64,000 nucleotides of DNA from a virus (IMGVR_UViG_3300032319_001025:80014-144013), one strand, 5' to 3'. Positions 652-61,960 are shown, numbered from the stretch's first letter. Notes: generated by a model from the sequence alone, not told the origin. Numbers and translations are program-made.

Positions 652-3042
652 ATGGATAACACTAAATTATTTAGGCAGTATTTATCCAACTACATAGATG
701 GACCAAATATTAATGCCATTCTTTATGCTTTTGGCGAAGCATATAATATTTTAGAACAGAACGGCGTAGCAGTAACAGATCAGCTAACAATATCGACAGC
801 TTCCGAAAGATACCTTGATAGATTATTAAGCGACTTAGCTATTACTAGACCGCCAGAGCTTGGTATTTCTGATTACTATTTTAGAAAAATAGGTATAAAC
901 ATAACGGCATCTAAACAGATAACCAGTTCGTTACATTCAATACTGGAAATATTTTATGGTCCTGATTTTGTGCGGGGCAGCACGATCTGTACAAAAAGCG
1001 AACCATATGATCTATCAGGAAATCCAGATTTAAGTCTTATATTTGAAGACGGCGAAGTTAGAACGCTAGTGTTTTATTCAGCTAATTTTAGTAACGTGTT
1101 TCAAGCTACAGCTCAAGAAGTAGCTAACGTTATTAATGTTTGGATTAAAAATCAAAATTTAAACGCTTATGCAACTGTTGAAACAGATTTTGACACAGGA
1201 TTAAAATATGTAAAACTATACGGTGGAGCAAAAGGACCTTATAGTTTGATTCAAGTTTGGGGCGGAAGAGCACAATCGATATTAGAGTTTCCAACGATGC
1301 GTGATACTAAACTGGCACCGTTAAATACTACGACTTGGCAGATAACTAAAAATAACGAAACAACTATTAGAGTTAGATGGGACGGCGGACCGAAACCTAG
1401 CTTAGATAAAGTACTTATTGATGATAGAGTTTTAATTTATGGCACACCGTTTCAAAATGCTAATTCCGAATTAATAGGTTCGTTCACTATAACGAACGTT
1501 AGCCCTCCTCAGAGCATTCCTAACGCAGATTCTGGATGGTTTGAATTCAAAGCTGTTTTACAAGATTTAAAAAACTCAACCCCTAATGCATATCCACCAC
1601 CAAATAGCCCTGGAAATATATATAGTTACACAGTAAATCAAACTGTTTACGATGATTTAAAGTTCTTTTTAGCTAGAAAAAATACGCCTTATTCAACAAA
1701 AAGATATGCTTTAGCTTTTGAACCTGCGGCCAACCTACTTAAAATATATTTACCAGCCACAACAACGATATTAGAAAGAGATTTGATTGGTGCATCTCAT
1801 TTGCACATGCTATATAACTATAGCGACTTTGATGGAACGTTTGGCGATCTATTAGATGATAATAAGAAAATTGAAATACTGAACACTTATTCTATTAGAT
1901 ACTATCAAGGAAGAGCTGACAACTCAGCTACTGGCGGAACGGTTACGTTACCTGGACCTACAGTTTTAAACATTTCTGAAATTTACAGAGAAAACGGTTA
2001 TGTAACTATTATAACCGAAACCCCTCATGGACTTATTGGCGAAAATGAATGGCAAAACGGGATAGACTACACTGCTGGAACAATTAAGGTTTATAATAAT
2101 TTTAATTGGTTAGCGTTACAAAACAGCGGGCCGTCATATGGTGGATCTAAACAGCCTGACGCAAATAGTCTTTTTTGGCAACAACAAGAGCCTACTAAAA
2201 ACTATACAACAAGTACAATAATAGTAAATGCAACTGGTTTAATAGTTGACGATCCAGTAAATTCATTTTTAGGACCCTACACATTTGATTCGCAGAGCAA
2301 TTACACGTTAGCTAGTGGTACTGGTTTTATAAGATCGAAAATAAACGCTGGCGAAATTAAAACTAATATTTTAGTAACTGGAGGGTTTTCCCAGCCTGAA
2401 GGTTATTTAATGTTCGACCTTAATGAAAACTCTCAAGAAGGTCCTGTAAAGTATTTATACAGTCAGCAACAAAAATCTAATATTATCACTAACATAGTTA
2501 ACATTTCAAGAATTACAAATAAAGTAACTGTAACAACCAACGCTCCTCATAATGCAGTTCCTGGCTCTCAAGTAGTGATAAGCGGTACTACTACTTTTAA
2601 TGGTGTTTGGACTGTAACAAATGTACCGTCATCTAATGTTTATGATTTTGTACATACTTCATCTGGAAGTGCTATTGAGACATCTGGAGTAAGCACCACG
2701 TTAATTGAAGAGAACACTTATTTGTTAACTTTAGAATCAGGCTATCAGTTTAAAGAAACCCATAACATATTATCAGATTTAGACATTGTATCTAATCCGC
2801 AAGCTTATGTACCTAATATAGACGGCTCTGATTATTGTGCATATCTTACAGGCTCAGCCGATGCAAGAATATATTGTGAAACGTTATTAAGAAGAATAAT
2901 AGCCGCAGGTATAAAACTAGAAGTTATTGTAATCTATCCAAGTGATTTAGGTTTAGGCAATGAAGGCGATGGCACATCGCAATATCAAGCTGCACCAATA
3001 TCAGAAGCGGCTACATACGTATGGGCATCTAGCTCAACTTAA
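652..3042 (+). CDS. Baseplate wedge/tail structural protein with a CBM5/12-like module and FCCH-like repeats
   Basis: Follows the J-like gene. The N-terminus 'TASERYLDRLLSDLAITRP' resembles gpI/wedge proteins. Internal motifs are 'EWQNGIDYTAG...WLALQ...P...FWQ' and 'VTVTTNAPHNAVPGSQVVISG...FNGVWTV'. Confidence 0.55.
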   Translation: MDNTKLFRQYLSNYIDGPNINAILYAFGEAYNILEQNGVAVTDQLTISTASERYLDRLLSDLAITRPPELGISDYYFRKIGINITASKQITSSLHSILEIFYGPDFVRGSTICTKSEPYDLSGNPDLSLIFEDGEVRTLVFYSANFSNVFQATAQEVANVINVWIKNQNLNAYATVETDFDTGLKYVKLYGGAKGPYSLIQVWGGRAQSILEFPTMRDTKLAPLNTTTWQITKNNETTIRVRWDGGPKPSLDKVLIDDRVLIYGTPFQNANSELIGSFTITNVSPPQSIPNADSGWFEFKAVLQDLKNSTPNAYPPPNSPGNIYSYTVNQTVYDDLKFFLARKNTPYSTKRYALAFEPAANLLKIYLPATTTILERDLIGASHLHMLYNYSDFDGTFGDLLDDNKKIEILNTYSIRYYQGRADNSATGGTVTLPGPTVLNISEIYRENGYVTIITETPHGLIGENEWQNGIDYTAGTIKVYNNFNWLALQNSGPSYGGSKQPDANSLFWQQQEPTKNYTTSTIIVNATGLIVDDPVNSFLGPYTFDSQSNYTLASGTGFIRSKINAGEIKTNILVTGGFSQPEGYLMFDLNENSQEGPVKYLYSQQQKSNIITNIVNISRITNKVTVTTNAPHNAVPGSQVVISGTTTFNGVWTVTNVPSSNVYDFVHTSSGSAIETSGVSTTLIEENTYLLTLESGYQFKETHNILSDLDIVSNPQAYVPNIDGSDYCAYLTGSADARIYCETLLRRIIAAGIKLEVIVIYPSDLGLGNEGDGTSQYQAAPISEAATYVWASSST

Positions 3043-3051
3043 AGGTTTTTT

Positions 3052-3498
3052 ATGATCAGTAAAATTATAACAGGACCGTCACTACTAATAAAAATAAAAC
3101 CAGAAAACGGTTTTGAACAAACTATTGGGTATGCTACAGATTTGCAATTAAATGTTGCACAGGGTCAAAAAGAAATCTTTGGTGTTGATAGTCCATTTCC
3201 ATTTGAAATAGCTCAAGGTGCCGCCCCTTCTTTGGTTCGCGGGACCATGGCTGTATACGTTTTAAAAGGTACGAACTTAGAAACCATAGGGCTAGTTCCA
3301 TATAGAAGCGATGATTCTAAAGAAACTATATCCCCAAATTCTAAGTACATTGATATCAATATATATGATAGAGCTTCTAAAACTTTAATATATGGTATTA
3401 AAAACTGCAAAGTTTCCTCATATACAATTTCTGTGTCAACTAGAAATGTTTTGCGATGTTCGCTTACATTTAGTGGTATATTATTAGAGCCAGGATAA
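3052..3498 (+). CDS. Tail tube-like/baseplate hub structural protein
   Basis: 148 aa, beta-rich, 'IGYATDLQLNV...IFGVDSPFPFEI...VRGTM' pattern seen in tube-fold proteins; tail context. Confidence 0.5.
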   Translation: MISKIITGPSLLIKIKPENGFEQTIGYATDLQLNVAQGQKEIFGVDSPFPFEIAQGAAPSLVRGTMAVYVLKGTNLETIGLVPYRSDDSKETISPNSKYIDINIYDRASKTLIYGIKNCKVSSYTISVSTRNVLRCSLTFSGILLEPG

Positions 3499-3508
3499 CT
3501 TATTGATT
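3496..3508 (-). promoter_or_regulatory. IHF consensus match (AATCAATAAGTTA)
   Basis: Exact match to WATCAANNNNTTR at the edge of an intergenic gap, about 20 bp upstream of the CTTAATCT motif. Confidence 0.35.
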
Positions 3509-3526
3509 TTGCTATTTTTTTAATAA

Positions 3527-12194: not shown

Positions 12195-12941
12195 TCATCT
12201 GTTTTCCATATTTTTTAATAGTTTACCGCTAAGTACGGCTGTTGCTTGTGATGTGCCAGTTAAAGGTTTACCGTTTTGATCTTCTACCCTCTCGCCTAAA
12301 GCCCAGTTTGTAACTGCGTGACCATAGTTAGAATGGCCCATTTTCTTACCTTCTGCGCTTAAGCTGCCAACTACGTAAAGGTTTTTATTAGGCTTTAAAC
12401 AAGCTGGAAAAAAGTTACATTTTTCATCTAAATTTGAACCATTGTTACCAGCAGCCACTACAACCTTGATATTTGAACTAAGAGCTTTCTTAACAACTTG
12501 ATCTTCGCTAAGGCTGTAGCTTTCACCGCCACCACTAAAATTTATTAGGGCAGCTTTTAATTCAATTGCGTATTCAATTCCTTGAAGTTCTTTTCTTAAG
12601 TTACTAGAGAAAAAAAGTGATGTGGACAAATAATATTTAACTGAAAGAATACAGTATTTTTTCTTGTTAAAGCTTTTAATGATTTGCCAAGCAACGTTAG
12701 TTCCGTGACCGTTATAGTCAAAAAGACCTTCTCCAGTGTAATCTCTGTGACCATTAACACAAAGGTAAGGTGTAACTTTATTATCTTTAAAGTTAATACC
12801 AGTATCAAGAACTACAACTGGGATTCTTTTGTCGGTAAATTTTGACAGATAAAGCATTTCGGTTGCTTGATCGTTATCAAAAGCAAATGAAACATTGGTT
12901 AATGTTAGGATTATTAGTAATGCTAATTTAACGTTTCCCAT
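12195..12941 (-). CDS. Secreted subtilisin-like serine protease (S8)
   Basis: Catalytic motifs VLDTG, GHGTNVA, AAGN and GTSQAT are present. A signal peptide MGNVKLALLIILTLTNVSFA starts at the ATG at 12941, which has GGAAGG upstream (the ORF track starts at 12998). Confidence 0.9.
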   Translation of the reverse strand: MGNVKLALLIILTLTNVSFAFDNDQATEMLYLSKFTDKRIPVVVLDTGINFKDNKVTPYLCVNGHRDYTGEGLFDYNGHGTNVAWQIIKSFNKKKYCILSVKYYLSTSLFFSSNLRKELQGIEYAIELKAALINFSGGGESYSLSEDQVVKKALSSNIKVVVAAGNNGSNLDEKCNFFPACLKPNKNLYVVGSLSAEGKKMGHSNYGHAVTNWALGERVEDQNGKPLTGTSQATAVLSGKLLKNMENR

Positions 12942-13494
12942 TCTTAAGTCCCTTCCTGAGTATGAATATATCATACAGGGACTTTTTAACAATTTCAAGT
13001 GGGAAAGGCAGCGATTTTTTAAGTAAATCTACGATTTTATTAACTTTTTTAAGACTTCTAGACTCTACTTCAATAAATACCCTCTTATCGTTAACTACTT
13101 GATATACGCTGACATTTGTATCAAACCTGTCTAAAAATAATACAGTATATCTTTTCTTTAAGTTTTTCGGCTTCTTACCGTATTCTGCTGTTTTAAGCTT
13201 AATAGCTTGGTCTACATCAATCACATCTAGGTCGATTTCTAGTCTATCTAGATTATCGCCTTTATCGCACTTTTTAACGGTCATTTGACCTTTGCCTTTT
13301 TTACTCTTCTCCATTTGTCTTACTCGGACAAAATCTACTGCTGGAGCTGGCCAATAATAATCAGTTCTTTCATCAGTAATAGTATGAATAGGTTTAAATA
13401 GGTTTCTGCAAAAGTCGTCAATCTTCTTTAAACTATTGCAACCTTTAACTAGTAGCTTTACTTCTATTTCCCTATTCTTGTATCCCATTAACAA
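12928..13494 (-). CDS. CYTH/triphosphate-tunnel metalloenzyme (CyaB-like)
   Basis: N-terminal ExExK motif (EIEVK), plus 'VRVR', 'TVK', 'KKRY' and C-terminal 'FIEVE'. Confidence 0.85.
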   Translation of the reverse strand: MLMGYKNREIEVKLLVKGCNSLKKIDDFCRNLFKPIHTITDERTDYYWPAPAVDFVRVRQMEKSKKGKGQMTVKKCDKGDNLDRLEIDLDVIDVDQAIKLKTAEYGKKPKNLKKRYTVLFLDRFDTNVSVYQVVNDKRVFIEVESRSLKKVNKIVDLLKKSLPFPLEIVKKSLYDIFILRKGLKNGKR

Positions 13495-23202: not shown

Positions 23203-23745
23203 TTAATTCAATGGTTTACTGATATCAAAAATAAATTTATCTATTGCGGTTTCTTTATAAAGACTAAATGGTGTTACCATATAATACATTACGTCATCGG
23301 GATTAGGTGAATGCTCAAGCCCAGCACAATGACCTAATTCGTGCCATACTACAGATTCTAATATTTGATTTTCAAAAGCGGTTGGAAAAAGCTCTATAAC
23401 GCAAGTTTCTTGTTGTACATATGCTTGCCCAGCAATATTTAAACCGTTTTTAGAATCGCTTTCACTATGATCAACCATTTTAAATGTTATTTTTTGGTGA
23501 TTTACAATGTCTTCAGTAAAAGATAAAAAAGGTTTTGAATTTCTTGAGTTTAAATCGTTTATTAAACTTATTATATTGCTTTTGTCGTTTTCAGTAAAAT
23601 TTTCAAACCCTTCAATTTTAGCTGGCCAAGAAATACAATTTTTTCCGCAACTTACCAAATTAAAAACCGCAAGAATAAAAATAAGTCTAACGGCAATATA
23701 AGCTAATTTTAAGCTTAAAATGACTTCTTTTTTGTTTTTTGTCAT
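23203..23745 (-). CDS. Matrixin-like (M10) zinc metalloprotease, probable lipoprotein
   Basis: 'HELGHCAGLEHS...DVMY' (HExxHxxGxxH plus Met-turn); lipobox-like 'LVSC' after a hydrophobic stretch. Confidence 0.85.
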   Translation of the reverse strand: MTKNKKEVILSLKLAYIAVRLIFILAVFNLVSCGKNCISWPAKIEGFENFTENDKSNIISLINDLNSRNSKPFLSFTEDIVNHQKITFKMVDHSESDSKNGLNIAGQAYVQQETCVIELFPTAFENQILESVVWHELGHCAGLEHSPNPDDVMYYMVTPFSLYKETAIDKFIFDISKPLN

Positions 23746-38476: not shown

Positions 38477-40150
38477 TTACACAATATAGCTGTTTTTACC
38501 GTCAAATTCAACATTAATTAATTTTTCAAAAGATTCTTTCATTTCAGTAGAATGGTCAACTATAAGTATTAAACCATTAATATTCTTTTTAATTGTTTCC
38601 ATTGCACATCTTTTTGTTTCTATATCTAAACCATCCATTGCTTCATCTAGTGCTACCCAATTGAATTTGATTCCCGATCTATTTCTTATAATTTCGCTTA
38701 TGGCTAAATCAAAACATAATTCTAATGCACATATTTGTCCGCCAGACAATGTTTTAATTTGTATTTCTTTTTCAAGTTTTTGCAATCTAATAGTAATGTT
38801 ATTTTTGATGTTTCCATTTTTGTTTATCTGGGATGAGTCAATAGAAACTGAAAAAGTGGACAAGTTTGGTATTTCTGATATTAAAGAATTAACTCTTGTT
38901 TCTAGCTCTTGCAGTAACTCATCGAAAATAAAACCTAAAAAACCTTGATTGCTTAATATTTTTAAACAATGTGAATATCTTTCAATTTCGGATTTAATCT
39001 GTTTTTGTTTGCCTTCTTTTAGTTCAATATCTTTAAGTACGGATATATATTTATTTTTCTTTTCTGTCAAAACGCTTAATACGTTTTTAGCCATATTAAG
39101 TTTTTCAATAATTTCTTTGGCTCTGGAAGATTCATTTCCAGTTTTTTGTACAATTTTGTCATACTCTGATTGTAAATCGTTTAAATTAATAGATAACTTG
39201 TCTGATTCTAGTATTGATTGTTCGTTTTCTTCTATTTGTTTTTTTAAGGTAGAAATAAATATTTTTTTACGTTCAATAATATCTTCATTTTTTTTCCAAA
39301 ATTGCAAGCATGTCGGACATTTTTCATCTTGCATGTGTTCTAGTTCATTTTCTATAATTTTAATTTTTGATTTAAAATCAATGTTTTGCTGTTTTTTGGT
39401 ATAAGCTTGGTTAATAATTGAACCAATTTTTGATATTTCTAATTTTATTTGATTTAATTTATTAGTATTTTCAATAAGTTCTTTATTGGCTTTTATAGAA
39501 TCAATTTCTTGTTTATAGTTAATGTAAGATTGCTCAGCATTTTTGTATTCTTCTTCATCAACCTTCCAGCTATCTAAATTAAATTTTAAAAACTGCAGTT
39601 CTCTATCAAAAGATTCTAAATTTAAATTTTTTGAATCATGTTGGTTTTTGATATTACTATAGGCTGTATCTATATCGGACAGTTGTAGCATTTCTCTTAA
39701 TAAGGTTTTTTTCTCACTATCTGGAGATCTTAAAAACGACCCTGGTTCTCTTTGTGGTCTATACGTAAGGATTTTTAAAAAGTCGGAATTAACTCCTAAT
39801 ACTTTATCTAATTTTTCTTGAGCGGAAGTTCCAGTAAAAGTTTCTCCAGATACGGTTAATTGCAATTTTGGATTCCTGACTATCTCTATGATTTCATTGT
39901 TGTTTTTTAATTGTAACTTGACATAAAAAGATTTTGAATTCCAATTTTTTAGCTCTGTTGCTGGCAAATCACAAAAACCTAGTGCGTAGGCTATCGCCAT
40001 AAGAATAGAACTTTTACCCGATCCTGAAGATATTTGTTCATTCTTGTATTTTCCAGATATTAATACGGCACCAGATTCTGGAAATTCAATTTCTGTTTTT
40101 TCTTTGAAAGAACGAAATCCTTCAAGTTCTATTTTTGATAGAGAAAACAT
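38477..40150 (-). CDS. SbcC/Rad50/gp46-like ATPase
   Basis: 'GFRSF', 'GSGKSS', zinc hook 'CPTC', 'LSGGQ', 'ALDEAMDGLD', 'VDH'. Confidence 0.93.
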   Translation of the reverse strand: MFSLSKIELEGFRSFKEKTEIEFPESGAVLISGKYKNEQISSGSGKSSILMAIAYALGFCDLPATELKNWNSKSFYVKLQLKNNNEIIEIVRNPKLQLTVSGETFTGTSAQEKLDKVLGVNSDFLKILTYRPQREPGSFLRSPDSEKKTLLREMLQLSDIDTAYSNIKNQHDSKNLNLESFDRELQFLKFNLDSWKVDEEEYKNAEQSYINYKQEIDSIKANKELIENTNKLNQIKLEISKIGSIINQAYTKKQQNIDFKSKIKIIENELEHMQDEKCPTCLQFWKKNEDIIERKKIFISTLKKQIEENEQSILESDKLSINLNDLQSEYDKIVQKTGNESSRAKEIIEKLNMAKNVLSVLTEKKNKYISVLKDIELKEGKQKQIKSEIERYSHCLKILSNQGFLGFIFDELLQELETRVNSLISEIPNLSTFSVSIDSSQINKNGNIKNNITIRLQKLEKEIQIKTLSGGQICALELCFDLAISEIIRNRSGIKFNWVALDEAMDGLDIETKRCAMETIKKNINGLILIVDHSTEMKESFEKLINVEFDGKNSYIV

Positions 40151-41178
40151 TACTTTTTTAGTCTATCACAGAATTCTTCAAAAGTCGAATTGCTACACCC
40201 CGCGGAAAGCCTGAAGTATTCATCTGTCATACCAGCTCCAGCGCCTTTTTTAACCTTAACCCCAAAATTGTCCATCATATGTTTAAAACCATCTGAACCA
40301 TCTTTAGTTTTACACCAAATAAACATTCCATTGTTTTTTTTATTTAAAATATCAAAAGTTAAATCATTTTTTAAACTTATTAATTTATCCCATCTTCTTT
40401 TTAATTCTTTTGCCCCATATGAAAAACAATCGTTTCCGCTTTTATTTTCTAAAAGCTCGCTTTGAATGCCTAAAATAAGCCTTGCGCGCTCTTGAGCTTC
40501 ATTGCTTGTCCCCACGGTTGTATTTTCTACATAATCTTCCATTATAGAAGCTATTTCAGGATCTCTTACTATTCCCCAACCTATTCTTGTAGCAGCATGT
40601 CCAGTGCTCTTAGATAGACTGAAAGCCATAATATCCATGTCATTCAATACTGTATTTTCTAGATATTGTGGCCATTGATATGATAAATCGTATATCTTTT
40701 GCTTTGTAGAAGATTCCGAAACTCTTAATTCGTTATCTGGGTTGTTTGGTGTAGTAATAAGCTCAATCGGGTTTAAGCTTTTGTCGCTATCGTCATCTAC
40801 TAATTTTAGTTTAGAAATTCTTACAAAATCTGGAAACCTGAAATAATATGGTTTTTTAACAATAACTGAATCATTACCGTATTTTTTATAGTATGCGTAC
40901 ATTGCAGCCAATAAAATATGAGTAACTCCGTTACCAACTATTATATGTTTTTCTTCTGCATTAGCGTTACCAGCAGCTTTATGTATTCTTCTGATAGTTT
41001 CTTTCATTTCTTCGGTAGTATTAAAAATATAATCCATTCCGAAGTTTGGAGGAAAGCTTAATTTAGAATATTCAATTCCGTGGGGGGTCATAGATAGATC
41101 TAAGTTTTTCCAATAATCTTCTAAAAACTTAGGAGATCCTTTGGCTAAATCTAAAATTGTTTTATTCGTCTGGTTCAT
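40150..41178 (-). CDS. PLP-dependent enzyme of the alliinase/tryptophan aminotransferase (TAA1/TAR) family
   Basis: 'LDLAKGSPKFLEDYW', 'IIVGNGVTHIL', 'PYY', 'IELITTPNNPD', 'YDLSYQWPQY', 'DIMAFSLSKSTGHAATRIGW', 'GTSNEAQ', 'RWDKL', 'FRLS'. Confidence 0.88.
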   Translation of the reverse strand: MNQTNKTILDLAKGSPKFLEDYWKNLDLSMTPHGIEYSKLSFPPNFGMDYIFNTTEEMKETIRRIHKAAGNANAEEKHIIVGNGVTHILLAAMYAYYKKYGNDSVIVKKPYYFRFPDFVRISKLKLVDDDSDKSLNPIELITTPNNPDNELRVSESSTKQKIYDLSYQWPQYLENTVLNDMDIMAFSLSKSTGHAATRIGWGIVRDPEIASIMEDYVENTTVGTSNEAQERARLILGIQSELLENKSGNDCFSYGAKELKRRWDKLISLKNDLTFDILNKKNNGMFIWCKTKDGSDGFKHMMDNFGVKVKKGAGAGMTDEYFRLSAGCSNSTFEEFCDRLKK

Positions 41179-41416
41179 TTGTGTCTGCTCTGCTTTTGTC
41201 GTTTCTTTCGCCCATCAATTCTTCAACATTATGTATTCTTTCAACGGCCCTACTCATTGCGCCGTTATCTAATCTTTCATAAACAACTGTAGTACCAACT
41301 TTAGGTACAAACAAAGAAGGTTCATTACATTTTTTACATGGCATAGTTTTTTCTCTTTTAGGCAATGATGCCTTAAAAGTGCCATGAGTATTACATTTAT
41401 AAGTAAACCAGCCCAT
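41162..41416 (-). CDS. FmdB-like zinc-ribbon protein
   Basis: 'FTYKCNTHGTF...PCKKC'. Confidence 0.6.
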   Translation of the reverse strand: MGWFTYKCNTHGTFKASLPKREKTMPCKKCNEPSLFVPKVGTTVVYERLDNGAMSRAVERIHNVEELMGERNDKSRADTNEPDE

Positions 41417-43173
41417 TATTCTCTAAGACCAGCACCTTTTTCAAAACGCCTTACGAATCTTTCTTCTTCCTTATCTGATTGATCATCTCTTTTAAATGCT
41501 ATTAAGCCGCCCATTGTACCTAAAAGCGAGGCTATAGACATACTATTTCTAATGGCTTCTAGTACAGCGGGGGCAGAATCTAGAACATCAATTCTGTCTC
41601 TCCATTCATACTCAGAAAGATCAAAAGTTTGATCATCTTTTTGTAATAGTTGACCAATCATACTATCTATTTCTTGTTCGTTAAATCCATAGTTTTTATA
41701 TAATATTTTTACTGGTTCAACTAAAGCATCCGAAAGAATATTAATTGCAATTTTCCTACATTCATTTTTTTCTTTTCTACCAAGTTCTAGTAAGTCTGCT
41801 GCAATTCTAACTAGTGTGTAACCTCCGCCTGGCACAGCACCGTATTTAACGGCTCCTCTAATTGCCATCCAAGCATCTTCTGCTCTGTCTCTTTTTTCTC
41901 GAGTTTCACCTTGGCTTAATCCGTAAATATTTAAACGTGCAATCCCACTAGTTAATTTTCCTATTCTAACGTCTAATTCGTGTGCTTCATATTGGCTTTC
42001 TGGTTTTTCTCTTCTTAACTTTAGCTCTTGAACTCTAGTTTCAATTAAGCTTTCATCCTCATCCACCATTATTGAACTTCTAAATCTTCCAACCTCAATA
42101 TTTTTTACACGATTTCTTTTAATTAAAAAATCGATGTTCATGTCTATAAGAGGTCTGTCGATTGGGTTAAACACAGGAGACCCAGTATATGCTTGTAAAT
42201 CGTAAAGCTGCTCAGTTCTTGAATTTATTGTAGCAGATTGTGTGGTTACAATTGGAAAAACTTTAAATGTCCCTTTATTCCAGTTAAGATGCAAATCTCC
42301 AACTACACTATCAGAAAACCCGTGCGAAACTACTACAATTCCTGTTGTAAGATGTGAATTTTCTGCAAAATATTGACCAATTTTGTTCATTGGTTCTAAG
42401 ATTTGAGAAATATCATTAATAGTACCGTCAAATAAAAGAACAAGAGGTTTTTCTAGAACAACCATTGTTCCGCTTTTATCATTAATAAACCCAGTTGAAA
42501 AATTTCTACAAGATTCTTCGTACCCTTTATCTAGGGTATATCCAGATATTTTTTCAATTTCATACTTAGATGGGCCTGTTGCTTCAATAATAGTGATATT
42601 GCCCTCATCACCTACAGTATTAAAAGATTCAATGATTGCATCAGCAAGTTCTTTATCCCCATTTGCTGATAGTGTGGCAACTTTATGTAGAATAGATTCT
42701 GAATTTTCACCATCAACTTTAATTTTATAAGAATCTATAACTTCGGAAATATAAGGGATTAGGTTCTGTAATTCCCTGACTATTTTTTGGGGGCTAAGTT
42801 TTGGATTTTTTTCAACTAATTTAGAAGTTCTTTTGGTAATACTTTCAGCAAGAATTGTAGCTGTAGTGGTTCCATCTCCAGCTTCGGAAGCTGTTCTGAC
42901 AGCAGCATCTCTAACAGCCTCTAACACCAACTGTTGAGTTGCGGATTCATAACCTAAATTTTTAATAACAGTAACACCGTCTTTTGTCATTATAGGTTTT
43001 AATCCAATTTCTGGTCTTTCAATTAAAACCTGTCTTCCTCCAGGTCCAAGTGTAGCTCCAACCATTTTTGCAATGTGTTCCATCGTTTCTAAAACAATGT
43101 TTTTAAGTTCTTGACCTGGTGCAACCATTACTTTAGAAGCAGATTTTGGTTTATTAACTTGAAAAAGACTCAT
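41416..43173 (-). CDS. groEL: Chaperonin GroEL-like
   Basis: 'TLGPGGRQV', 'TKDGVTV', 'AGDGTTTATILA', 'VPGGG'. Confidence 0.95.
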   Translation of the reverse strand: MSLFQVNKPKSASKVMVAPGQELKNIVLETMEHIAKMVGATLGPGGRQVLIERPEIGLKPIMTKDGVTVIKNLGYESATQQLVLEAVRDAAVRTASEAGDGTTTATILAESITKRTSKLVEKNPKLSPQKIVRELQNLIPYISEVIDSYKIKVDGENSESILHKVATLSANGDKELADAIIESFNTVGDEGNITIIEATGPSKYEIEKISGYTLDKGYEESCRNFSTGFINDKSGTMVVLEKPLVLLFDGTINDISQILEPMNKIGQYFAENSHLTTGIVVVSHGFSDSVVGDLHLNWNKGTFKVFPIVTTQSATINSRTEQLYDLQAYTGSPVFNPIDRPLIDMNIDFLIKRNRVKNIEVGRFRSSIMVDEDESLIETRVQELKLRREKPESQYEAHELDVRIGKLTSGIARLNIYGLSQGETREKRDRAEDAWMAIRGAVKYGAVPGGGYTLVRIAADLLELGRKEKNECRKIAINILSDALVEPVKILYKNYGFNEQEIDSMIGQLLQKDDQTFDLSEYEWRDRIDVLDSAPAVLEAIRNSMSIASLLGTMGGLIAFKRDDQSDKEEERFVRRFEKGAGLRE

Positions 43174-54815: not shown

Positions 54816-56879
54816 ATGGCAGAACAAGATAAAAATAAAAACGGAAATCAATTACAGCCTATAGATCCTGTTGCAATTAAAGCTCTTGCCAAAAAAGAAG
54901 AAGATCTTTCAAAACAAGAACCTTCTGAGCCAGGGGTTTTGGAACTTTTATTAAAGTCATTAAAAACTTACGAATCAGCTCAAAGAATGAGCTTCGAAGT
55001 AGACCCTACTCTATCTACGTCTTCTTACGGCGCACTTTACAGACCTAAAATCAATCTTGTCCCAGATTATATTATTAAAAGAATTACTGGACCGCAAGGA
55101 GATGACCTTGTTTGCCAGATTCTTCAAGCGCGTGCAAATATCATGTCTTCGTTTGGAAGACCTAGAACATCTAGGTTTTCTATTGGTTTTGAATTTGTAC
55201 AAGTTAACAATTCGATTAAAAAAGATACGCCAGAATATGAAGAAATGAAAGAGCGTATTAAAAAAATTAAAGAATTTTTATGGAATTGCGGATATAAAGA
55301 CGCTCTTGATGGCGGTGAATATTTTAGACCTACTTTATCTCAGTTCATGAAAATGATCACTAGAGATGGTCTTGCACATGGAAGAATTGCAGTAGAAAGA
55401 ATTTACGCACCAGATCCAAACACTGGTAAAAAAAGACTTGTTGCCTTTAGACCAGTTGATTCTGGAACGATTTATCATATTATCTCTAGAAGATCTTTAG
55501 ATCAAAGCACTAGGGATAACGCTATTAGAATACTTTCCCAGCTTAAAAATGAAAAAATTGATATCAAAAGATACGAACAAGATGAATATCGATGGGTTCA
55601 AGTTATTAATGGCAAACCAGAACAGACTTTTTCAGAAGAAGAGCTTGTAGTTTACAATCTTTTTCCTACCAATAATGTTGAATTTAACGGATATCCATTA
55701 ACTCCTATTGATCAGGCACTAAATGCAATTGCTACACATATTAATATAGCACTGCACAATAAATTATATTTTCAACACGGCAGAGCATCAAAAGGAATGC
55801 TAGTTTTAAGTTCAGCTGATATTGATGAAGGTTCAGTTCATAGAATTAGGAATCAATTTCATCAATCGATTAATTCTGTACAAAATTCATGGAGAATGCC
55901 AGTATTTGGTATCGGTCCAGAAGATAGTTTGACATGGCAGGCAATTGACACATCTGGAAAAGATCAAGAATTTACTTATCTATCTGACAATAATGCCAGA
56001 GTTATTTTATCTGCATTTTTAATGTCTCCAGAAGAACTTCCTGGTTATTCACATTTGGCCAGAGGTACAAATACTCAAGCATTATCAGAATCTAATAATG
56101 AATGGAAATTAACGGCTGCTCGAGATGTGGGCTTACGACCTTTAATATGTGACATGCAAGATTTTTTTAATGCTCATATTATTCCAGAAATTGATTATGA
56201 GTTTTCAAAGCATTATAGATTAATTTTTGCAGGTATTGAGCAAGATAGCCCAGAAAAAGAAGCAACTAGAATTTCTCAAGATATGTCAATTCATATGACA
56301 TATAATGAAGTTTTAGAGCGAGTAGAAAAAGATAAAATGCCAGCAGAGCTTGGTGGAGACTATCCGCTTAGCCCACAATTTGTTACTTCAGTTTTAGATC
56401 CTTATCTTACTGTCGGTGAAAAATTAGAAAACTTTTTTGGTAAAAAAGGTGCCTCTAAAGATCCAAGATTTGACTGGTATAGAGATCCTCTTTGGTTACA
56501 ATGGCAACAGGTAATTTTACAAAAAGCACAGCTTGCTTCTCAAAACATTATGATGGCTCAACAAATACAACAACAAAATTTACAATTAATGTCACCAGAA
56601 AACCCTCAACAGCCACCAGAACAAGAACAAGTACCAGAGGGCGCAACCGAAGCTCAAAAAAGCGAAATTATGGCTAAAAACCAAAAAGCTTTAGAAGAGT
56701 GGCATGCTCAAAATTTTCAAGGTTTAGCTAAAGCCACTCAAAATAATCACGATACTTTAACCAAAATGATTTTAAAGCGTCATAAAGAAATGGTTGAAAA
56801 ACATTTAGATGACTGGTCCAAAGAAAGCAAAGACGCTGTTAAAAAAATAAAAGACTCCTTTAACAATGAAAAAGAGTAA
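54816..56879 (+). CDS. Portal protein
   Basis: 'RPVDSGTI', 'GYPLTPIDQA', 'YFQHG...KGML', 'FLMSPEEL', 'GLRPL', 'MTYNEV'; lies between TerL and the protease. Confidence 0.9.
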   Translation: MAEQDKNKNGNQLQPIDPVAIKALAKKEEDLSKQEPSEPGVLELLLKSLKTYESAQRMSFEVDPTLSTSSYGALYRPKINLVPDYIIKRITGPQGDDLVCQILQARANIMSSFGRPRTSRFSIGFEFVQVNNSIKKDTPEYEEMKERIKKIKEFLWNCGYKDALDGGEYFRPTLSQFMKMITRDGLAHGRIAVERIYAPDPNTGKKRLVAFRPVDSGTIYHIISRRSLDQSTRDNAIRILSQLKNEKIDIKRYEQDEYRWVQVINGKPEQTFSEEELVVYNLFPTNNVEFNGYPLTPIDQALNAIATHINIALHNKLYFQHGRASKGMLVLSSADIDEGSVHRIRNQFHQSINSVQNSWRMPVFGIGPEDSLTWQAIDTSGKDQEFTYLSDNNARVILSAFLMSPEELPGYSHLARGTNTQALSESNNEWKLTAARDVGLRPLICDMQDFFNAHIIPEIDYEFSKHYRLIFAGIEQDSPEKEATRISQDMSIHMTYNEVLERVEKDKMPAELGGDYPLSPQFVTSVLDPYLTVGEKLENFFGKKGASKDPRFDWYRDPLWLQWQQVILQKAQLASQNIMMAQQIQQQNLQLMSPENPQQPPEQEQVPEGATEAQKSEIMAKNQKALEEWHAQNFQGLAKATQNNHDTLTKMILKRHKEMVEKHLDDWSKESKDAVKKIKDSFNNEKE

Positions 56880-57760: not shown

Positions 57761-58663
57761 ATGTTAATTGACGGACCAATTACAACTCAAACTATTGATA
57801 GTAGCGGTGAAATTTTAGATTTAAAAGGTCTTGATATTTCCGACTTTTTAGAAGGTAAAGCTACTGCAAATTTTGAGCATAACAATGACAATGCTGACGA
57901 TGTTCTAGGTTGGTTTGTTTATGCTAAAAAAATCTTTAGCGAATCAGATTGTGAAAATGAACGTCAAAAAATGTTTTGGGATAAAGTTAAAACCCCGTTT
58001 TTATATGGTGTATTAGAGCTTTTAGACGACGCCTCTCACCCTGGAGCAATTGCAGTTGCTGCAATGCTTAGATATTTTAAAAAGAAAAATGAACCAGTAA
58101 GAATTGGAATGAGTATTGAAGGATCTACTCTTGAAAGAGATGGGCATATATTAAAACGAACTGTTGGTAGAAAAGTAGCTATTACTCTTAGACCATGCAA
58201 TAAGCAATGTATGCTTGACGTTTTACCGCAAGAACGTACAGATGAATTGATTCATAAAATGGAATCTGATTATATTAAATCTTTCGAAGTTGATTCCCCT
58301 ATACTAGAAAAATCAGAATTTTTAAATAATAATAAAAAGACATTTAATAAATCAGAGTCAAATCTTATCGACGAAATTAAAAAAGATTTGTTAAATTTAA
58401 GAAAAACTCTAACAGCTGGAATGGGAAACGCTGCACCATCAAGTCTTGTAGGCGGTTCTGCACTTGCTGTAGAAGATAAAAAAAATAAAACAAATGTAAA
58501 TGTTTTAAAATCTGTTATTAGAGATTTTCAAGGTAAATCAAAAGAAGATTTTAAGAAAGCAGTAAAAGAAGCTTTACCAGATTTGAGTGATAAATATGTT
58601 GATCATTTTGTTGATTTAGCAGAAGATTTGTCGCTTAAAAAATTTAAGAAAAGACTTTTTTAA
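57761..58663 (+). CDS. Prohead protease (HK97-type fold)
   Basis: 'IDSSGEIL..KGLD', 'NFEH', 'GMSIEG', 'VAITLRPCN'. Confidence 0.85.
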   Translation: MLIDGPITTQTIDSSGEILDLKGLDISDFLEGKATANFEHNNDNADDVLGWFVYAKKIFSESDCENERQKMFWDKVKTPFLYGVLELLDDASHPGAIAVAAMLRYFKKKNEPVRIGMSIEGSTLERDGHILKRTVGRKVAITLRPCNKQCMLDVLPQERTDELIHKMESDYIKSFEVDSPILEKSEFLNNNKKTFNKSESNLIDEIKKDLLNLRKTLTAGMGNAAPSSLVGGSALAVEDKKNKTNVNVLKSVIRDFQGKSKEDFKKAVKEALPDLSDKYVDHFVDLAEDLSLKKFKKRLF

Positions 58664-59123
58664 GGAGTGAAAAATGAAAGCAGAATTTCATGAAAATGGA
58701 ATGATTAAAATGGAATTTGATAGAAGCACCCCAGAGCATATCAAAAAAGCGGCACTTAAATGGGCTAAAAAAAGAGGTTTAAAAGCCACTGAAGCATCAT
58801 TAAATAAATCCGCTAACTCACCAGAATTATACATTTTTTCAGTATCGGGTAAAAATTTACCGCTAACTGATAATTACATTTCTAAAAAATGGGACTTTAA
58901 ATAATTGTTTTTATTAAGTATTTTGTCTAATACTTATAATTAACAAAAAAAACAACAATTACAATAACTTATTAAATAGTTGAAATTATTAACTATTTTA
59001 TTTTTATCTTAAATCTTATAATTAAGGCAAAGTATAACTTTGCGAAAAGTTTAAGTTTATCGTACAATCAAAACTTGATTAAAACTTTAACAGACTGTCG
59101 TTAAAGACAAAGGAGATAGCAAA

Positions 59124-59546
59124 ATGTCAGCATTTAAAGCTCAGGCGATGGCCAGAAACCTTACACAGCGTTTGAAAGCACAAGTTGCTCCTACGCTTAC
59201 AATTACTCAAACATTGGATGCAAACAACATGCCAATTTTGAAAATTGAAAAAGGTGCAGAGAAAATTTTTGTTAAAATCGAAGTAGAACAAAATCCTTCT
59301 GGCGGTGTTAACGCTGTTGGAATCGCTCAAGAATCATACAGCCCACACGCTGTTACTATCTTGAGAGACAGCACTGCATCAGATGCAGACCTAAGAGAAA
59401 AAACATCGAGCGAAGCTATCAAACTTGGAACTAAAGTTGATATTTATCAAGTAGATCCAATGCCAGCTTCTTACGATTTAACTGGAGCATCCAAGGTTGC
59501 TTCTTTACCATCAGATCCTTACAACAAACTTACTCTTTCCGAGTAA
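59124..59546 (+). CDS. Probable head-associated structural protein
   Basis: Strong RBS (AAGGAG); first gene of the scaffold-capsid unit. Confidence 0.45.
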   Translation: MSAFKAQAMARNLTQRLKAQVAPTLTITQTLDANNMPILKIEKGAEKIFVKIEVEQNPSGGVNAVGIAQESYSPHAVTILRDSTASDADLREKTSSEAIKLGTKVDIYQVDPMPASYDLTGASKVASLPSDPYNKLTLSE

Positions 59547-60550: not shown

Positions 60551-61960
60551 ATGGATCTAGTAAAAACACTAGAAAGTCTAGTTAAGACGCTAGAAGCTGG
60601 TAATTATAATGCCGCTCCTAGTAACTTAGTCCAAGGTTCTGCATTGCAGATGGAAGATCTTTCCCCTGTTATGCATAACGTATGCTGGGACGATAGCCAT
60701 ATTAAACTGCAAAAACTTTTTTCAGTTAAAAAGGCAAAATCGATTCTGGTTCAATTCAACCGTAAGCTGTCCTATGGACGTTTTGGTGGATCTGCAAGAC
60801 GCGAAGGATATGTAGGCGATGTGAAAACTGGCGACTACATCCGAGCAGTGGTGCCGATGTGCTTCTACTCTCAAGTTCGACGCGTTACGATTGCTGCTAA
60901 CATGGTTGATACCATGGACGGAATTAAAGCAGAAGATCGTGAAGCCGATAACGCAGCTATTGAATTAGCTGGGGATATCGAATTTGATATGTTTAAAGGA
61001 AAATCAAACTTCTCTAACGCTGGAGTGTTTGATGGTAATCCTTTAGCAATTCCTGAACTTCCAAACATGCTTGGTGTTGATGTTCAAGTTCGTCAATCTG
61101 ATGATCAATTGAATACTCAAGACCTTATGTTCCTAAGCTACGGCGGAAACCGATCAGTAGTCCTTTCTAAAAATGGACCTCTTGATCAACCGATCGTAGA
61201 AGATGCTGCTCTACGAAGCCGCATGAACCATGGTAAAGCAGAAATGCTATTTGTTGATCCAGTAGTTCTTTCTGGATATAACAAATCAGTTGCTCTTGGA
61301 ACTGGAGCTAATAGCTTGCAACGTATCGTTCTAGCTGGTTCCGCTCAAGATGCTTCTGGAGCTGACCTACGAAGACAATGGGTTTCTAACGGAACAGTTC
61401 AAATCGAAGATAGCCGATTCCTAAGCGGAAAAACTCAGCCAGACCGACCAAACATCGGTTCTCCTGCTACCCCTTCGATTGCTGTTCAACCTGTTGCTGG
61501 AGCGGGTGGAGCACTTCCTCCTGCTACCTATAAATATCTTATCACTGCTGTTAACGAGCGTGGTGAGTCTTTAGGTGCTCTAAGTAACTCTGCAACCTCG
61601 ATTGCTGGTGAAAAAATCACTCTAAGCATTGCACCGCAAGCTGGAGTTCTTTATTTCAGTGTTTACAGAGCTTCTGGAGCTTCTGTAGCAGCAGCAGATT
61701 GCAAATTCATCGGAAACGTAGCTCAAGCAGCTAGCGGTAACACCGTCTTCACAGACCTTGGAAACCGAAGCGAAGCTTTTGTTACTGGATACCTAGTACA
61801 AAAAGATTGCTGGGGAATTCATGAGTTAGCTTCTTACAGCCGATTGAAATTGGCTATCAGCGACTTGTCGCTACCTGAAGCTCACTTCCGATTCTTGACT
61901 CTTGCTGGTTATGAACCACGTAAGAACGTCTTGATCGATAATTTGACAGGTACTTTTTAA
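60551..61960 (+). CDS. Major capsid protein (SPO1/Twort-like) with an Ig/Fn3-like insertion
   Basis: N-terminal 'KTLEAG...GSALQMEDL', 'IEFDMFKG' and 'FDG'; insertion 'PATPSIA...TYKYLITAVNERGES'; follows the scaffold and precedes a strong terminator. Confidence 0.88.
   Translation: MDLVKTLESLVKTLEAGNYNAAPSNLVQGSALQMEDLSPVMHNVCWDDSHIKLQKLFSVKKAKSILVQFNRKLSYGRFGGSARREGYVGDVKTGDYIRAVVPMCFYSQVRRVTIAANMVDTMDGIKAEDREADNAAIELAGDIEFDMFKGKSNFSNAGVFDGNPLAIPELPNMLGVDVQVRQSDDQLNTQDLMFLSYGGNRSVVLSKNGPLDQPIVEDAALRSRMNHGKAEMLFVDPVVLSGYNKSVALGTGANSLQRIVLAGSAQDASGADLRRQWVSNGTVQIEDSRFLSGKTQPDRPNIGSPATPSIAVQPVAGAGGALPPATYKYLITAVNERGESLGALSNSATSIAGEKITLSIAPQAGVLYFSVYRASGASVAAADCKFIGNVAQAASGNTVFTDLGNRSEAFVTGYLVQKDCWGIHELASYSRLKLAISDLSLPEAHFRFLTLAGYEPRKNVLIDNLTGTF

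Follow-up and report, generated by a model that had tools for sequence, protein, structure and literature searches.

The 64,000-nt stretch of viral DNA analysed here (the window; IMGVR_UViG_3300032319_001025, positions 80014–144013) encodes a 342-residue protein, P0001, that is intact and almost certainly belongs to the Alliinase_C family, the family of the plant tryptophan aminotransferase TAA1, which opens auxin synthesis, and of alliinase, which produces the allicin of garlic. We read P0001 as a stand-alone, functional fold-type-I pyridoxal 5′-phosphate (PLP) enzyme of a short-form clade of tailed phages, most likely a transaminase; judged from sequence and predicted structure, this reading has a probability of about 0.5. 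The open reading frame (ORF) runs from ATG to TAA on the minus strand, at window positions 40150–41178. An earlier sequence-only reading of the same DNA had placed a 342-aa ORF here, with the strand left unstated, and had assigned it to the TAA1/alliinase family.

Family, fold and active site of P0001

The Pfam Alliinase_C model (PF04864) covers residues 10–342 of P0001 (model positions 2–361 of 363) with 204.3 bits against a cut-off of 22 and an E-value of 3.4e-60. Aminotran_1_2 (PF00155) matches only the C-terminal half, residues 182–340, with 47.9 bits. PF04864 is therefore ahead by 156 bits, and this comparison (204 versus 48 bits), which had been proposed as a check on the sequence-only reading, bears out its family assignment. 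P0001 has no Alliinase_EGF domain: Alliinase_C begins at residue 10 of 342, and the protein holds no other Pfam domain. Among PDB sequences, phmmer at E ≤ 1e-3 finds only TAA1 (3bwn, E = 1.4e-40) and the alliinases 2hor and 1lk9 (around 1e-30), the alliinase matches being two sequences from three entries. The best NCBIfam match, to the cyclodehydratase GntC, reaches 37 bits against a cut-off of 415, and all NCBIfam aminotransferase models stay at or below 37 bits against cut-offs of 276–617. PHROGs gives a weak match to a family of unknown function.

The AlphaFold2 model of P0001, built on a 45-sequence alignment, has a pLDDT of 94 and a pTM of 0.92. Foldseek places TAA1 chains at the top (E about 1e-28, TM-score 0.84–0.87), followed by garlic alliinase (E = 2.8e-26, TM-score 0.86). 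The next tier consists of kynurenine, prephenate and aspartate aminotransferases with E-values around 1e-16 (best 6e-16) and TM-scores of about 0.7, a gap of ten orders of magnitude. A structural comparison with TAA1 had been suggested as a further check, and TAA1, the closest solved relative, indeed ranks first. Bacterial class-I aminotransferases and C-S lyases (kynurenine/prephenate/aspartate and MalY/PatB types) share fold type I and PLP chemistry with P0001, but are only 13–19% identical to it. The Arabidopsis proteins TAA1, TAR1 and TAR2 (3bwn, 3bwo) resemble P0001 in their single PF04864 domain, the absence of an EGF domain, the PLP lysine and the Asn/Asp/Tyr/Arg cage. TAA1 has 391 residues against 342 in the phage protein, which is about 50 residues shorter, and identity over the fold alignment is 28–29%. 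P0001 differs from TAA1 in its membership of the short-form phage clade, in conserved residues of its own such as Arg114, and in having no YUCCA partner in the genome. The garlic and onion alliinases (1lk9, 2hor, 2hox; E = 1e-30 by sequence) have the same family and fold, but P0001 differs from them and from TAR3/TAR4 in lacking an N-terminal EGF-like domain and a signal or vacuolar targeting region, and in its separate clade.

The seven motifs quoted by the sequence-only reading all occur in P0001 in the quoted order: LDLAKGSPKFLEDYW at residues 9–23, IIVGNG at 79–84, IELITTPNNPD at 138–148, DLSYQWPQY at 164–172, DIMAFSLSKSTGHAATRIGW at 182–201, GTSNEAQ at 223–229 and RWDKL at 262–266. The TAA1 strings that it had set beside them are the same strings that HMMER aligns in PDB entry 3bwn. 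Lys190 (codon at 40609–40611, minus strand) is the predicted PLP Schiff-base lysine and aligns with Lys217 of TAA1 and Lys251 of alliinase in HMMER alignments to 3bwn and 2hor. It is invariant in alignments A1, A2 and A3 and present in 100% of short-form, eukaryote and Parachlamydiaceae rows, so the PLP lysine is kept, as had been claimed for this protein, and is kept across clades.

The other predicted cofactor contacts are equally well preserved. The segment from PNNPD to Asp164 and Tyr167 (40678–40749, minus strand) contains Asn146, Asp164 and Tyr167, the counterparts of alliinase Asn207, Asp225 and Tyr228, and all three are 100% conserved in the short-form and eukaryote clades. In alliinase, we take these residues to contact O3′ and N1 of PLP. 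Tyr112, located with Arg114 at 40837–40845 (minus strand), aligns by HMMER with alliinase Tyr165, presumably the tyrosine that stacks on PLP. Arg114, two residues past Tyr112, stands out by clade conservation; it is arginine in 90% of short-form sequences and is not conserved in the eukaryote clade. Arg198 aligns with alliinase Arg259 (HMMER), and Tyr50 is invariant in the MAFFT alignment, plant sequences included. In the cofactor cage of alliinase, Arg259 presumably holds the phosphate and Tyr92′ is presumably the tyrosine from the partner subunit. From its conservation, Arg323 (codon at 40210–40212, minus strand) is predicted to bind the α-carboxylate of the substrate; it is invariant in A1 and A2, including the plant TAR2-like P0105, and is found in 99% of the short-form and 88% of the eukaryote clade. 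Taken together, Tyr50, His66, Asn146, Asp164, Tyr167, Trp169, Lys190, Arg198, Gln229, Arg262 and Arg323 are 88–100% conserved in the short-form and eukaryote clades. By these alignments, the PLP-binding and predicted catalytic residue set of the family is complete in P0001. The clade alignment shows no column fixed to differing residues between short-form and eukaryote clades. Conserved positions specific to the short form are Arg114, Tyr172, Glu218, Gly284, Met285 and the alignment columns of P0001 residues 325 and 327.

P0001 is 86% identical in amino-acid sequence to its nearest ortholog, in the related phage locus L001, with a dN/dS of 0.08 at a dS of 1.16, and the GC content of the enzyme gene is that of the surrounding phage DNA. 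Judged from its sequence, the gene is intact, selected and functional.

Distribution and phylogeny of the short form

The record that carries P0001 is a phage genome, as the sequence-only reading had held. It measures 144,013 bp, ends in direct terminal repeats and is rated 100% complete by CheckV; among the genes of the window are those for DNA polymerase, helicases, primase, a RecA-like protein, terminase and portal, along with major head and tail genes, and the enzyme gene overlaps phage genes on both sides. P0001 is one of many short forms, which are about 300–360 aa long and have no EGF domain. When 1.84 billion cluster representatives were searched exhaustively, 878 clusters matched at E ≤ 1e-3 and 141 at E ≤ 1e-30, and every top match measures 300–360 aa. 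The short-form clade comprises more than 100 clusters at 50% identity and lies on at least 30 phage contigs of IMG/VR, which represent two or more unrelated lineages of phages. Relatives of P0001 are encoded at 54 IMG/VR loci, and in alignment A3 all 47 non-redundant sequences (46 viral-locus ORFs and the window protein) match PF04864. The most distant relatives score higher on Aminotran_1_2 and served as outgroup. Database labels on some of the relatives read 'L-tryptophan--pyruvate aminotransferase' (JGI) or 'aminotransferase class I/II-fold' (NCBI).

Ten whole or near-whole carrier genomes (64–162 kb, 33–50% GC) fall into two super-groups with just 1–10 ORFs in common. Alliinase_C is the sole family present in all ten, and its gene position varies between genomes. 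Depending on the lineage, the enzyme gene lies in the replication module, beside endolysin and terminase genes, or near a ribonucleotide reductase gene; in the second phage group it adjoins genes for an M15 endolysin, the large terminase subunit and a P22-like portal. Endolysin, RecA, dUTPase and protease families also occur across lineages of the carrier genomes. In metagenome contigs not preselected as viral, seven of seven short-form copies among the matches listed have neighbours homologous to genes of these phages, and in a 53-member look-alike cluster of the ESM Atlas, 83% of the 12 members of known phylum are Viruses (Uroviricota). As sampled, the short-form clade is thus probably phage-borne in essence, and borne by tailed phages. 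The sequence-only reading had spoken of an unusual auxiliary metabolic gene (AMG); a phage-encoded metabolic enzyme it is, but a one-off it is not, given a clade on at least 30 phage contigs. In keeping with the term AMG, this is a metabolic-enzyme gene in a bona fide virus genome and is flanked by viral genes; a recognisable host homolog, also part of that definition, is missing, short-form relatives being found neither among the cellular-genome matches listed nor in plasmids. In one carrier locus, L002:11225-14353, the P22-like portal gene is split by a Hint/LAGLIDADG intein (Hom_end_hint and Hom_end).

Searches of other collections were negative for the short form. No relatives of P0001 were found in INPHARED (50,697 GenBank phage records, including Myxococcus phage Mx1) or in 72,556 plasmids, no close viral structure in BFVD, and no strong profile match in 401 Pseudomonadota genomes. 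A profile search of the phylum that holds the Parachlamydiaceae genome found 3 of 400 genomes positive, all with the long type of 396–398 aa.

Two trees were computed, a 217-row FastTree and an 82-row IQ-TREE (LG+C20). In both, P0001 falls within a subclade of 100% support, together with L001 and P0002–P0006. P0001 is placed with Alliinase_C proteins and away from the Aminotran_1_2-like outgroup. A eukaryote clade with 96–98% support contains Lupinus, Diphasiastrum, Colocasia, a Parmales alga, Monosiga and long unnamed forms. The land plants lie in this separate clade, and P0001 does not fall inside a TAA1/TAR1/TAR2 clade of land plants. The label 'plant-type' given by the sequence-only reading therefore fails as a statement of descent, P0001 being in the short-form clade, outside the plant TAA/TAR and alliinase clades. 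The Parachlamydiaceae clade groups with or within the eukaryote clade in IQ-TREE (98% for the joint clade), a small separate clade holds a sequence from a Bdellovibrionia metagenome-assembled genome (MAG), and very distant Legionella/Chlamydiales proteins of 520–550 aa form a clade of their own. The IQ-TREE, a quick run, had the eukaryotes nested within a grade of short forms. This arrangement was not upheld: a tree constrained to hold all 44 short forms as a clade has a log-likelihood higher by 35 and a p-value of 0.88 in the approximately unbiased (AU) test, and since the constrained tree has the higher likelihood, we read the short forms as one clade beside the eukaryote clade. The phage clade is distinct and next to the eukaryote clade, and the data carry no direction of transfer; P0001 may bear, as the sequence-only reading had supposed, on the movement of the family among lineages.

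Other members of the family differ from P0001 in length and position. Protist Alliinase_C proteins (Monosiga brevicollis XP_001746485, Parmales) and a giant-virus protein from locus L032 have the same domain and conserved catalytic residues, but they are 390–800 aa long with N-terminal extensions and form a clade with plants, and the L032 gene is not in a tailed phage. In L032:7867-10952, this 427-aa eukaryote-clade Alliinase_C lies 54 bp downstream of a major capsid gene (Capsid_NCLDV and Capsid_N) of a nucleocytoplasmic large DNA virus and also near a VLTF3-like factor, so giant viruses of eukaryotes carry the eukaryote-type form of the family. A 301.7-kb IMG/VR 'viral' contig encodes a 362-aa Alliinase_C of Parachlamydiaceae type (L042:9923-11011) and a Kelch-repeat eukaryote-type Ser/Thr/Tyr kinase. 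The contig possibly belongs to an amoeba-infecting giant virus, and it would be in line with genes passing between eukaryotes, giant viruses and amoeba-associated Chlamydiae. Parachlamydiaceae proteins (P0018–P0020, P0187–P0191, L055, L207–L209) are Alliinase_C proteins of 389–398 aa with a full-length PF04864 match at 125 bits, the sole clear prokaryotic cellular members among the matches listed. They are 24–26% identical to P0001 and depart from it at three positions that are conserved elsewhere, with Asn for Tyr167, Tyr for Trp201 and Ser for Gly193. Among the matches listed, L057–L069 (Legionella spp., Chlamydiales and Verrucomicrobia MAGs) are mostly 508–554 aa, with one of 440 aa and one truncated; they have a weak Alliinase_C core (37–59 bits) with long extensions and form a tight, very long-branched clade.

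The Alliinase_C family has been regarded as essentially eukaryotic, with a debated origin (PMC11214133, PMC4754409, PMC10015382), in agreement with the background given by the sequence-only reading. A 2022 review describes the tryptophan aminotransferase clade as 'almost exclusively in plants' (PMC9309667), and when the origin of TAA was debated in 2014–2016, the prokaryotic matches cited as closest were 25% identical, with E-values of 2e-8 and 9e-7 (PMC4754409). No description of viral members of the family was found in the literature searched, where the large and compact clade of P0001, present in at least two unrelated phage lineages, is undescribed. Matching TAA1 at E = 1e-40, with the full catalytic set, the phage clade supplies this debate with a far nearer non-eukaryotic group on which trees could be rooted and the direction of transfer tested, and the short forms are small, soluble, single-domain enzymes with which to ask for the ancestral activity of the family. 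Those who study how auxin synthesis and alliinases evolved would hardly expect this finding, which opens the ancestral activity and the origin of the family to test. We think it unlikely that the short-form clade, rather than being a side branch, is the closest sister of the eukaryotic TAA/alliinase family surviving in the prokaryote world, or perhaps its source. If it were, phages, giant viruses, amoeba-associated Chlamydiae and eukaryotes would have exchanged the family among them, and the first enzyme of auxin biosynthesis in plants would go back to a virus-carried gene pool. A parallel proposal, unlikely as well, would have aquatic phages making indole-3-pyruvate or other aryl-pyruvates in infected cells and so feeding into auxin-type signalling between bacteria and algae.

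Predicted reaction and competing explanations

Fold-type-I enzymes are expected to be homodimers with a shared active site. P0001 would likewise be a homodimer, with PLP bound as a Schiff base on Lys190. Tyr112 would stack on the pyridine ring, Asp164 would hold N1, and Asn146 and Tyr167 would hold O3′. The phosphate of PLP would be held by Arg198 and by Tyr50 of the partner subunit. An L-amino acid would dock through its carboxylate on Arg323 and form the external aldimine, with chemistry then taking place at Cα. The most likely conversion would turn an aromatic or sulfur-containing amino acid into its 2-oxo acid, and pyruvate or 2-oxoglutarate would accept the amino group. Made alongside the products of replication-module genes in infection, the enzyme could redirect the amino-acid and nitrogen pool of the host. 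Transamination is favoured because P0001 is nearer to TAA1, has no EGF domain, and TAA1 and TAR1 are promiscuous. The EGF domain marks the alliinase/TAR3-4 clade and is missing from TAA1 and TAR1 (PMC10015382), and the latter two are promiscuous aromatic aminotransferases (PMC9309667). An aminotransferase rather than a lyase is close to an even call, and any single substrate that one might name for P0001 would probably be wrong. The two activities suggested by the sequence-only reading, formation of indole-3-pyruvate and C-S cleavage, are candidates. For phage biology, P0001 stands for a widespread, strongly selected, stand-alone PLP enzyme, and any reaction it performs would be a new kind of phage metabolic intervention.

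Several observations weigh against this reading. Since the known substrate-binding residues are common to TAA1 and alliinase (PMC4754409, citing He et al. 2011), sequence cannot tell a transaminase from a lyase, and the higher score of TAA1 owes partly to the extra insertions of alliinase. The short-form-specific residues could signal a specificity or chemistry unlike that of TAA1 or alliinase. The comparison of neighbourhoods and of ten whole genomes brought up neither a conserved partner nor a host homolog, and no pathway context. Some carriers may be cellular, because the majority of short-form clusters are represented by sequences from unlabelled metagenome contigs and bacterial MAGs account for a few (on short contigs or on one 67-kb contig). 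The all-species genome and metagenome scans cover the matches listed and give no absence from cellular genomes.

Candidate pathways for the enzyme were also tried and rejected. In plants, the indole-3-pyruvate that TAA/TAR enzymes make from tryptophan passes to a YUCCA-type monooxygenase. A phage-encoded auxin route is absent, because the complete genome contains neither a YUCCA-type flavin-containing monooxygenase (PF00743) nor a thiamine pyrophosphate-dependent decarboxylase (PF02776). DNA hypermodification of the 5-hydroxymethyldeoxyuridine (hmdU) type was dropped, the complete genome having no hydroxymethylase of the thymidylate-synthase family. A role in defence or anti-defence was likewise set aside, with no PADLOC match for the enzyme.

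P0001 could instead be a C-S β-lyase like garlic alliinase, a possible but doubtful assignment, and would then turn an S-substituted cysteine into pyruvate, ammonia and a reactive sulfur product in infection. Sulfoxides, cystine, cystathionine and comparable organosulfur amino acids would be candidate substrates. Family and catalytic residue set are common to P0001 and alliinase (Lys251, Asn207, Asp225, Tyr228, Arg259 and Tyr165 correspond to Lys190, Asn146, Asp164, Tyr167, Arg198 and Tyr112), and the fold match to 1lk9 almost equals that to TAA1. The eukaryote clade outside land-plant TAA/TAR is without an established aminotransferase function, and the ancestral specificity has been called unknown (PMC10015382, PMC11214133). 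However, P0001 lacks the N-terminal EGF-like domain of alliinase and is slightly nearer to TAA1 in both sequence and fold. No sulfur-metabolism partner was found. The S-adenosylmethionine synthetase (MetK) of this phage was found in none of 34 other carrier records, 8 of which are at least 90% complete. To our knowledge, there is no bacterial pool of cysteine sulfoxides that would suggest a substrate. Another PLP reaction on a non-proteinogenic substrate (decarboxylation-dependent transamination, γ-elimination, racemisation or cyclodehydration) is less likely than the lyase; it might be a step in nucleotide or DNA modification, or might yield a small molecule that acts on the host. Such chemistry would suit the clade-specific Arg114 next to the stacking tyrosine and the C-terminal-domain Gly284, Met285 and columns 325/327, which are absent from the eukaryote clade, and also the position of the enzyme gene in the replication/recombination module of this phage lineage. 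GntC, the best NCBIfam match, is itself a cyclodehydratase, but its 37 bits are far under the cut-off. The missing hydroxymethylase speaks against a modification step, no partner is conserved across the ten whole genomes, and gene position differs between lineages.

The two remaining explanations concern the origin of P0001 and are both highly improbable compared with transamination by a short-form phage enzyme. An ordinary bacterial, host-derived aminotransferase of the HisC/AspC type (class I/II), with a superficial likeness to TAA1, would account for the PF00155 match (48 bits, C-terminal half) and for the generic names that NCBI gives to the relatives. It was named beforehand as the outcome that would undo the family assignment, and it is refuted because the Alliinase_C scores, with their 156-bit lead and NCBIfam at or below 37 bits, the ten-order Foldseek gap and the tree set P0001 apart. 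That P0001 was captured recently from a plant or alga, or that the phage contig is contaminated with eukaryotic DNA or mis-assembled, could be argued from the fact that the nearest named and solved relatives are plant proteins. Identity to plant proteins is just 28–36%, however, and P0001 lies in a 100%-supported subclade of phage and metagenome sequences outside the eukaryote clade; its position outside the plants excludes a recent capture by a phage from a plant. The overlaps with phage genes at both ends, the synteny in eight related phage loci and a GC content matching the phage also speak against contamination and capture.

Neighbouring genes and the carrier genome

The enzyme gene sits in a syntenic block on the minus strand, made up of chaperonin, zinc-ribbon, Alliinase_C and SbcC-like genes and three small ORFs, which is found again in L001 and, among more distant phages, at seven loci. 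In the distant phages, shared proteins are merely 30–60% identical, yet the position of the enzyme gene is kept. The block is headed by a GroEL-like chaperonin (41416–43173, minus strand; Cpn60_TCP1), for which GroEL models give 248–264 bits, under their cut-offs, and which is 54–92% identical across the eight syntenic loci. Directly upstream of the enzyme lies an 84-aa CxxH...CxxC zinc-ribbon protein (41162–41416, minus strand), whose gene overlaps the enzyme start by 17 nt. The gene holds the same position in the eight related phage loci and is absent beside the enzyme gene in the other phage lineage. The sequence-only reading had called this neighbour FmdB-like; this name is weaker than stated, Zn_ribbon_8 scoring just 17 bits against a cut-off of 34. 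Downstream, an SbcC/Rad50-like ATPase (38477–40150, minus strand) starts within the enzyme stop as TAATG, with a shared A. Its naming as sbcC is backed by mutually consistent matches to SMC_N, SbcC_Walker_B, Rad50 and SbcC, all of them sub-threshold, and the gene is syntenic in L001, L004, L014, L018/20/22, L026 and L050. The translational coupling that had been claimed for the enzyme gene is thus real at both of its ends.

The major capsid protein (window 60551–61960) shares 56% identity with its counterpart in Myxococcus phage Mx1, the sole close cultured relative, and other cultured phages reach at most 25%. We take the host of Mx1 to have a GC content very different from that of this phage. 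The 64-kb window contains no tRNA genes. Elsewhere in the genome, a full three-domain MetK (S-adenosylmethionine synthetase) is encoded at 58198–59349 (minus strand; L152:18198-19349), with nearest homologs just 44–49% identical and taxonomically mixed; a link between it and the enzyme through methionine or sulfur metabolism was rejected on the carrier counts given above. The phage has an unusually rich proteostasis set, with an FtsH-like protease, ClpP, DnaJ and the GroEL-like chaperonin, along with a subtilase and a matrixin-like peptidase. These genes lie at genome positions 830–2629 (minus), 2717–3511 (minus) and 54883–55716 (plus) and at window positions 41416–43173, 12195–12998 and 23203–23745 (all minus). 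Subtilase, trypsin-like and metallopeptidase families recur among otherwise unrelated carrier phages.

Two adjacent ORFs of 1223 and 1185 aa (genome 8355–12026 and 12055–15612, plus strand; L150) belong to no credible Pfam family, one of them having a sub-threshold Pfam match at most. They are 46–63% identical to ORFs of the second, unrelated phage group (L015, L016, L019, L021), well above the 33–36% or so that is usual for genes shared between the two super-groups. This likeness may reflect recent exchange or a common host.

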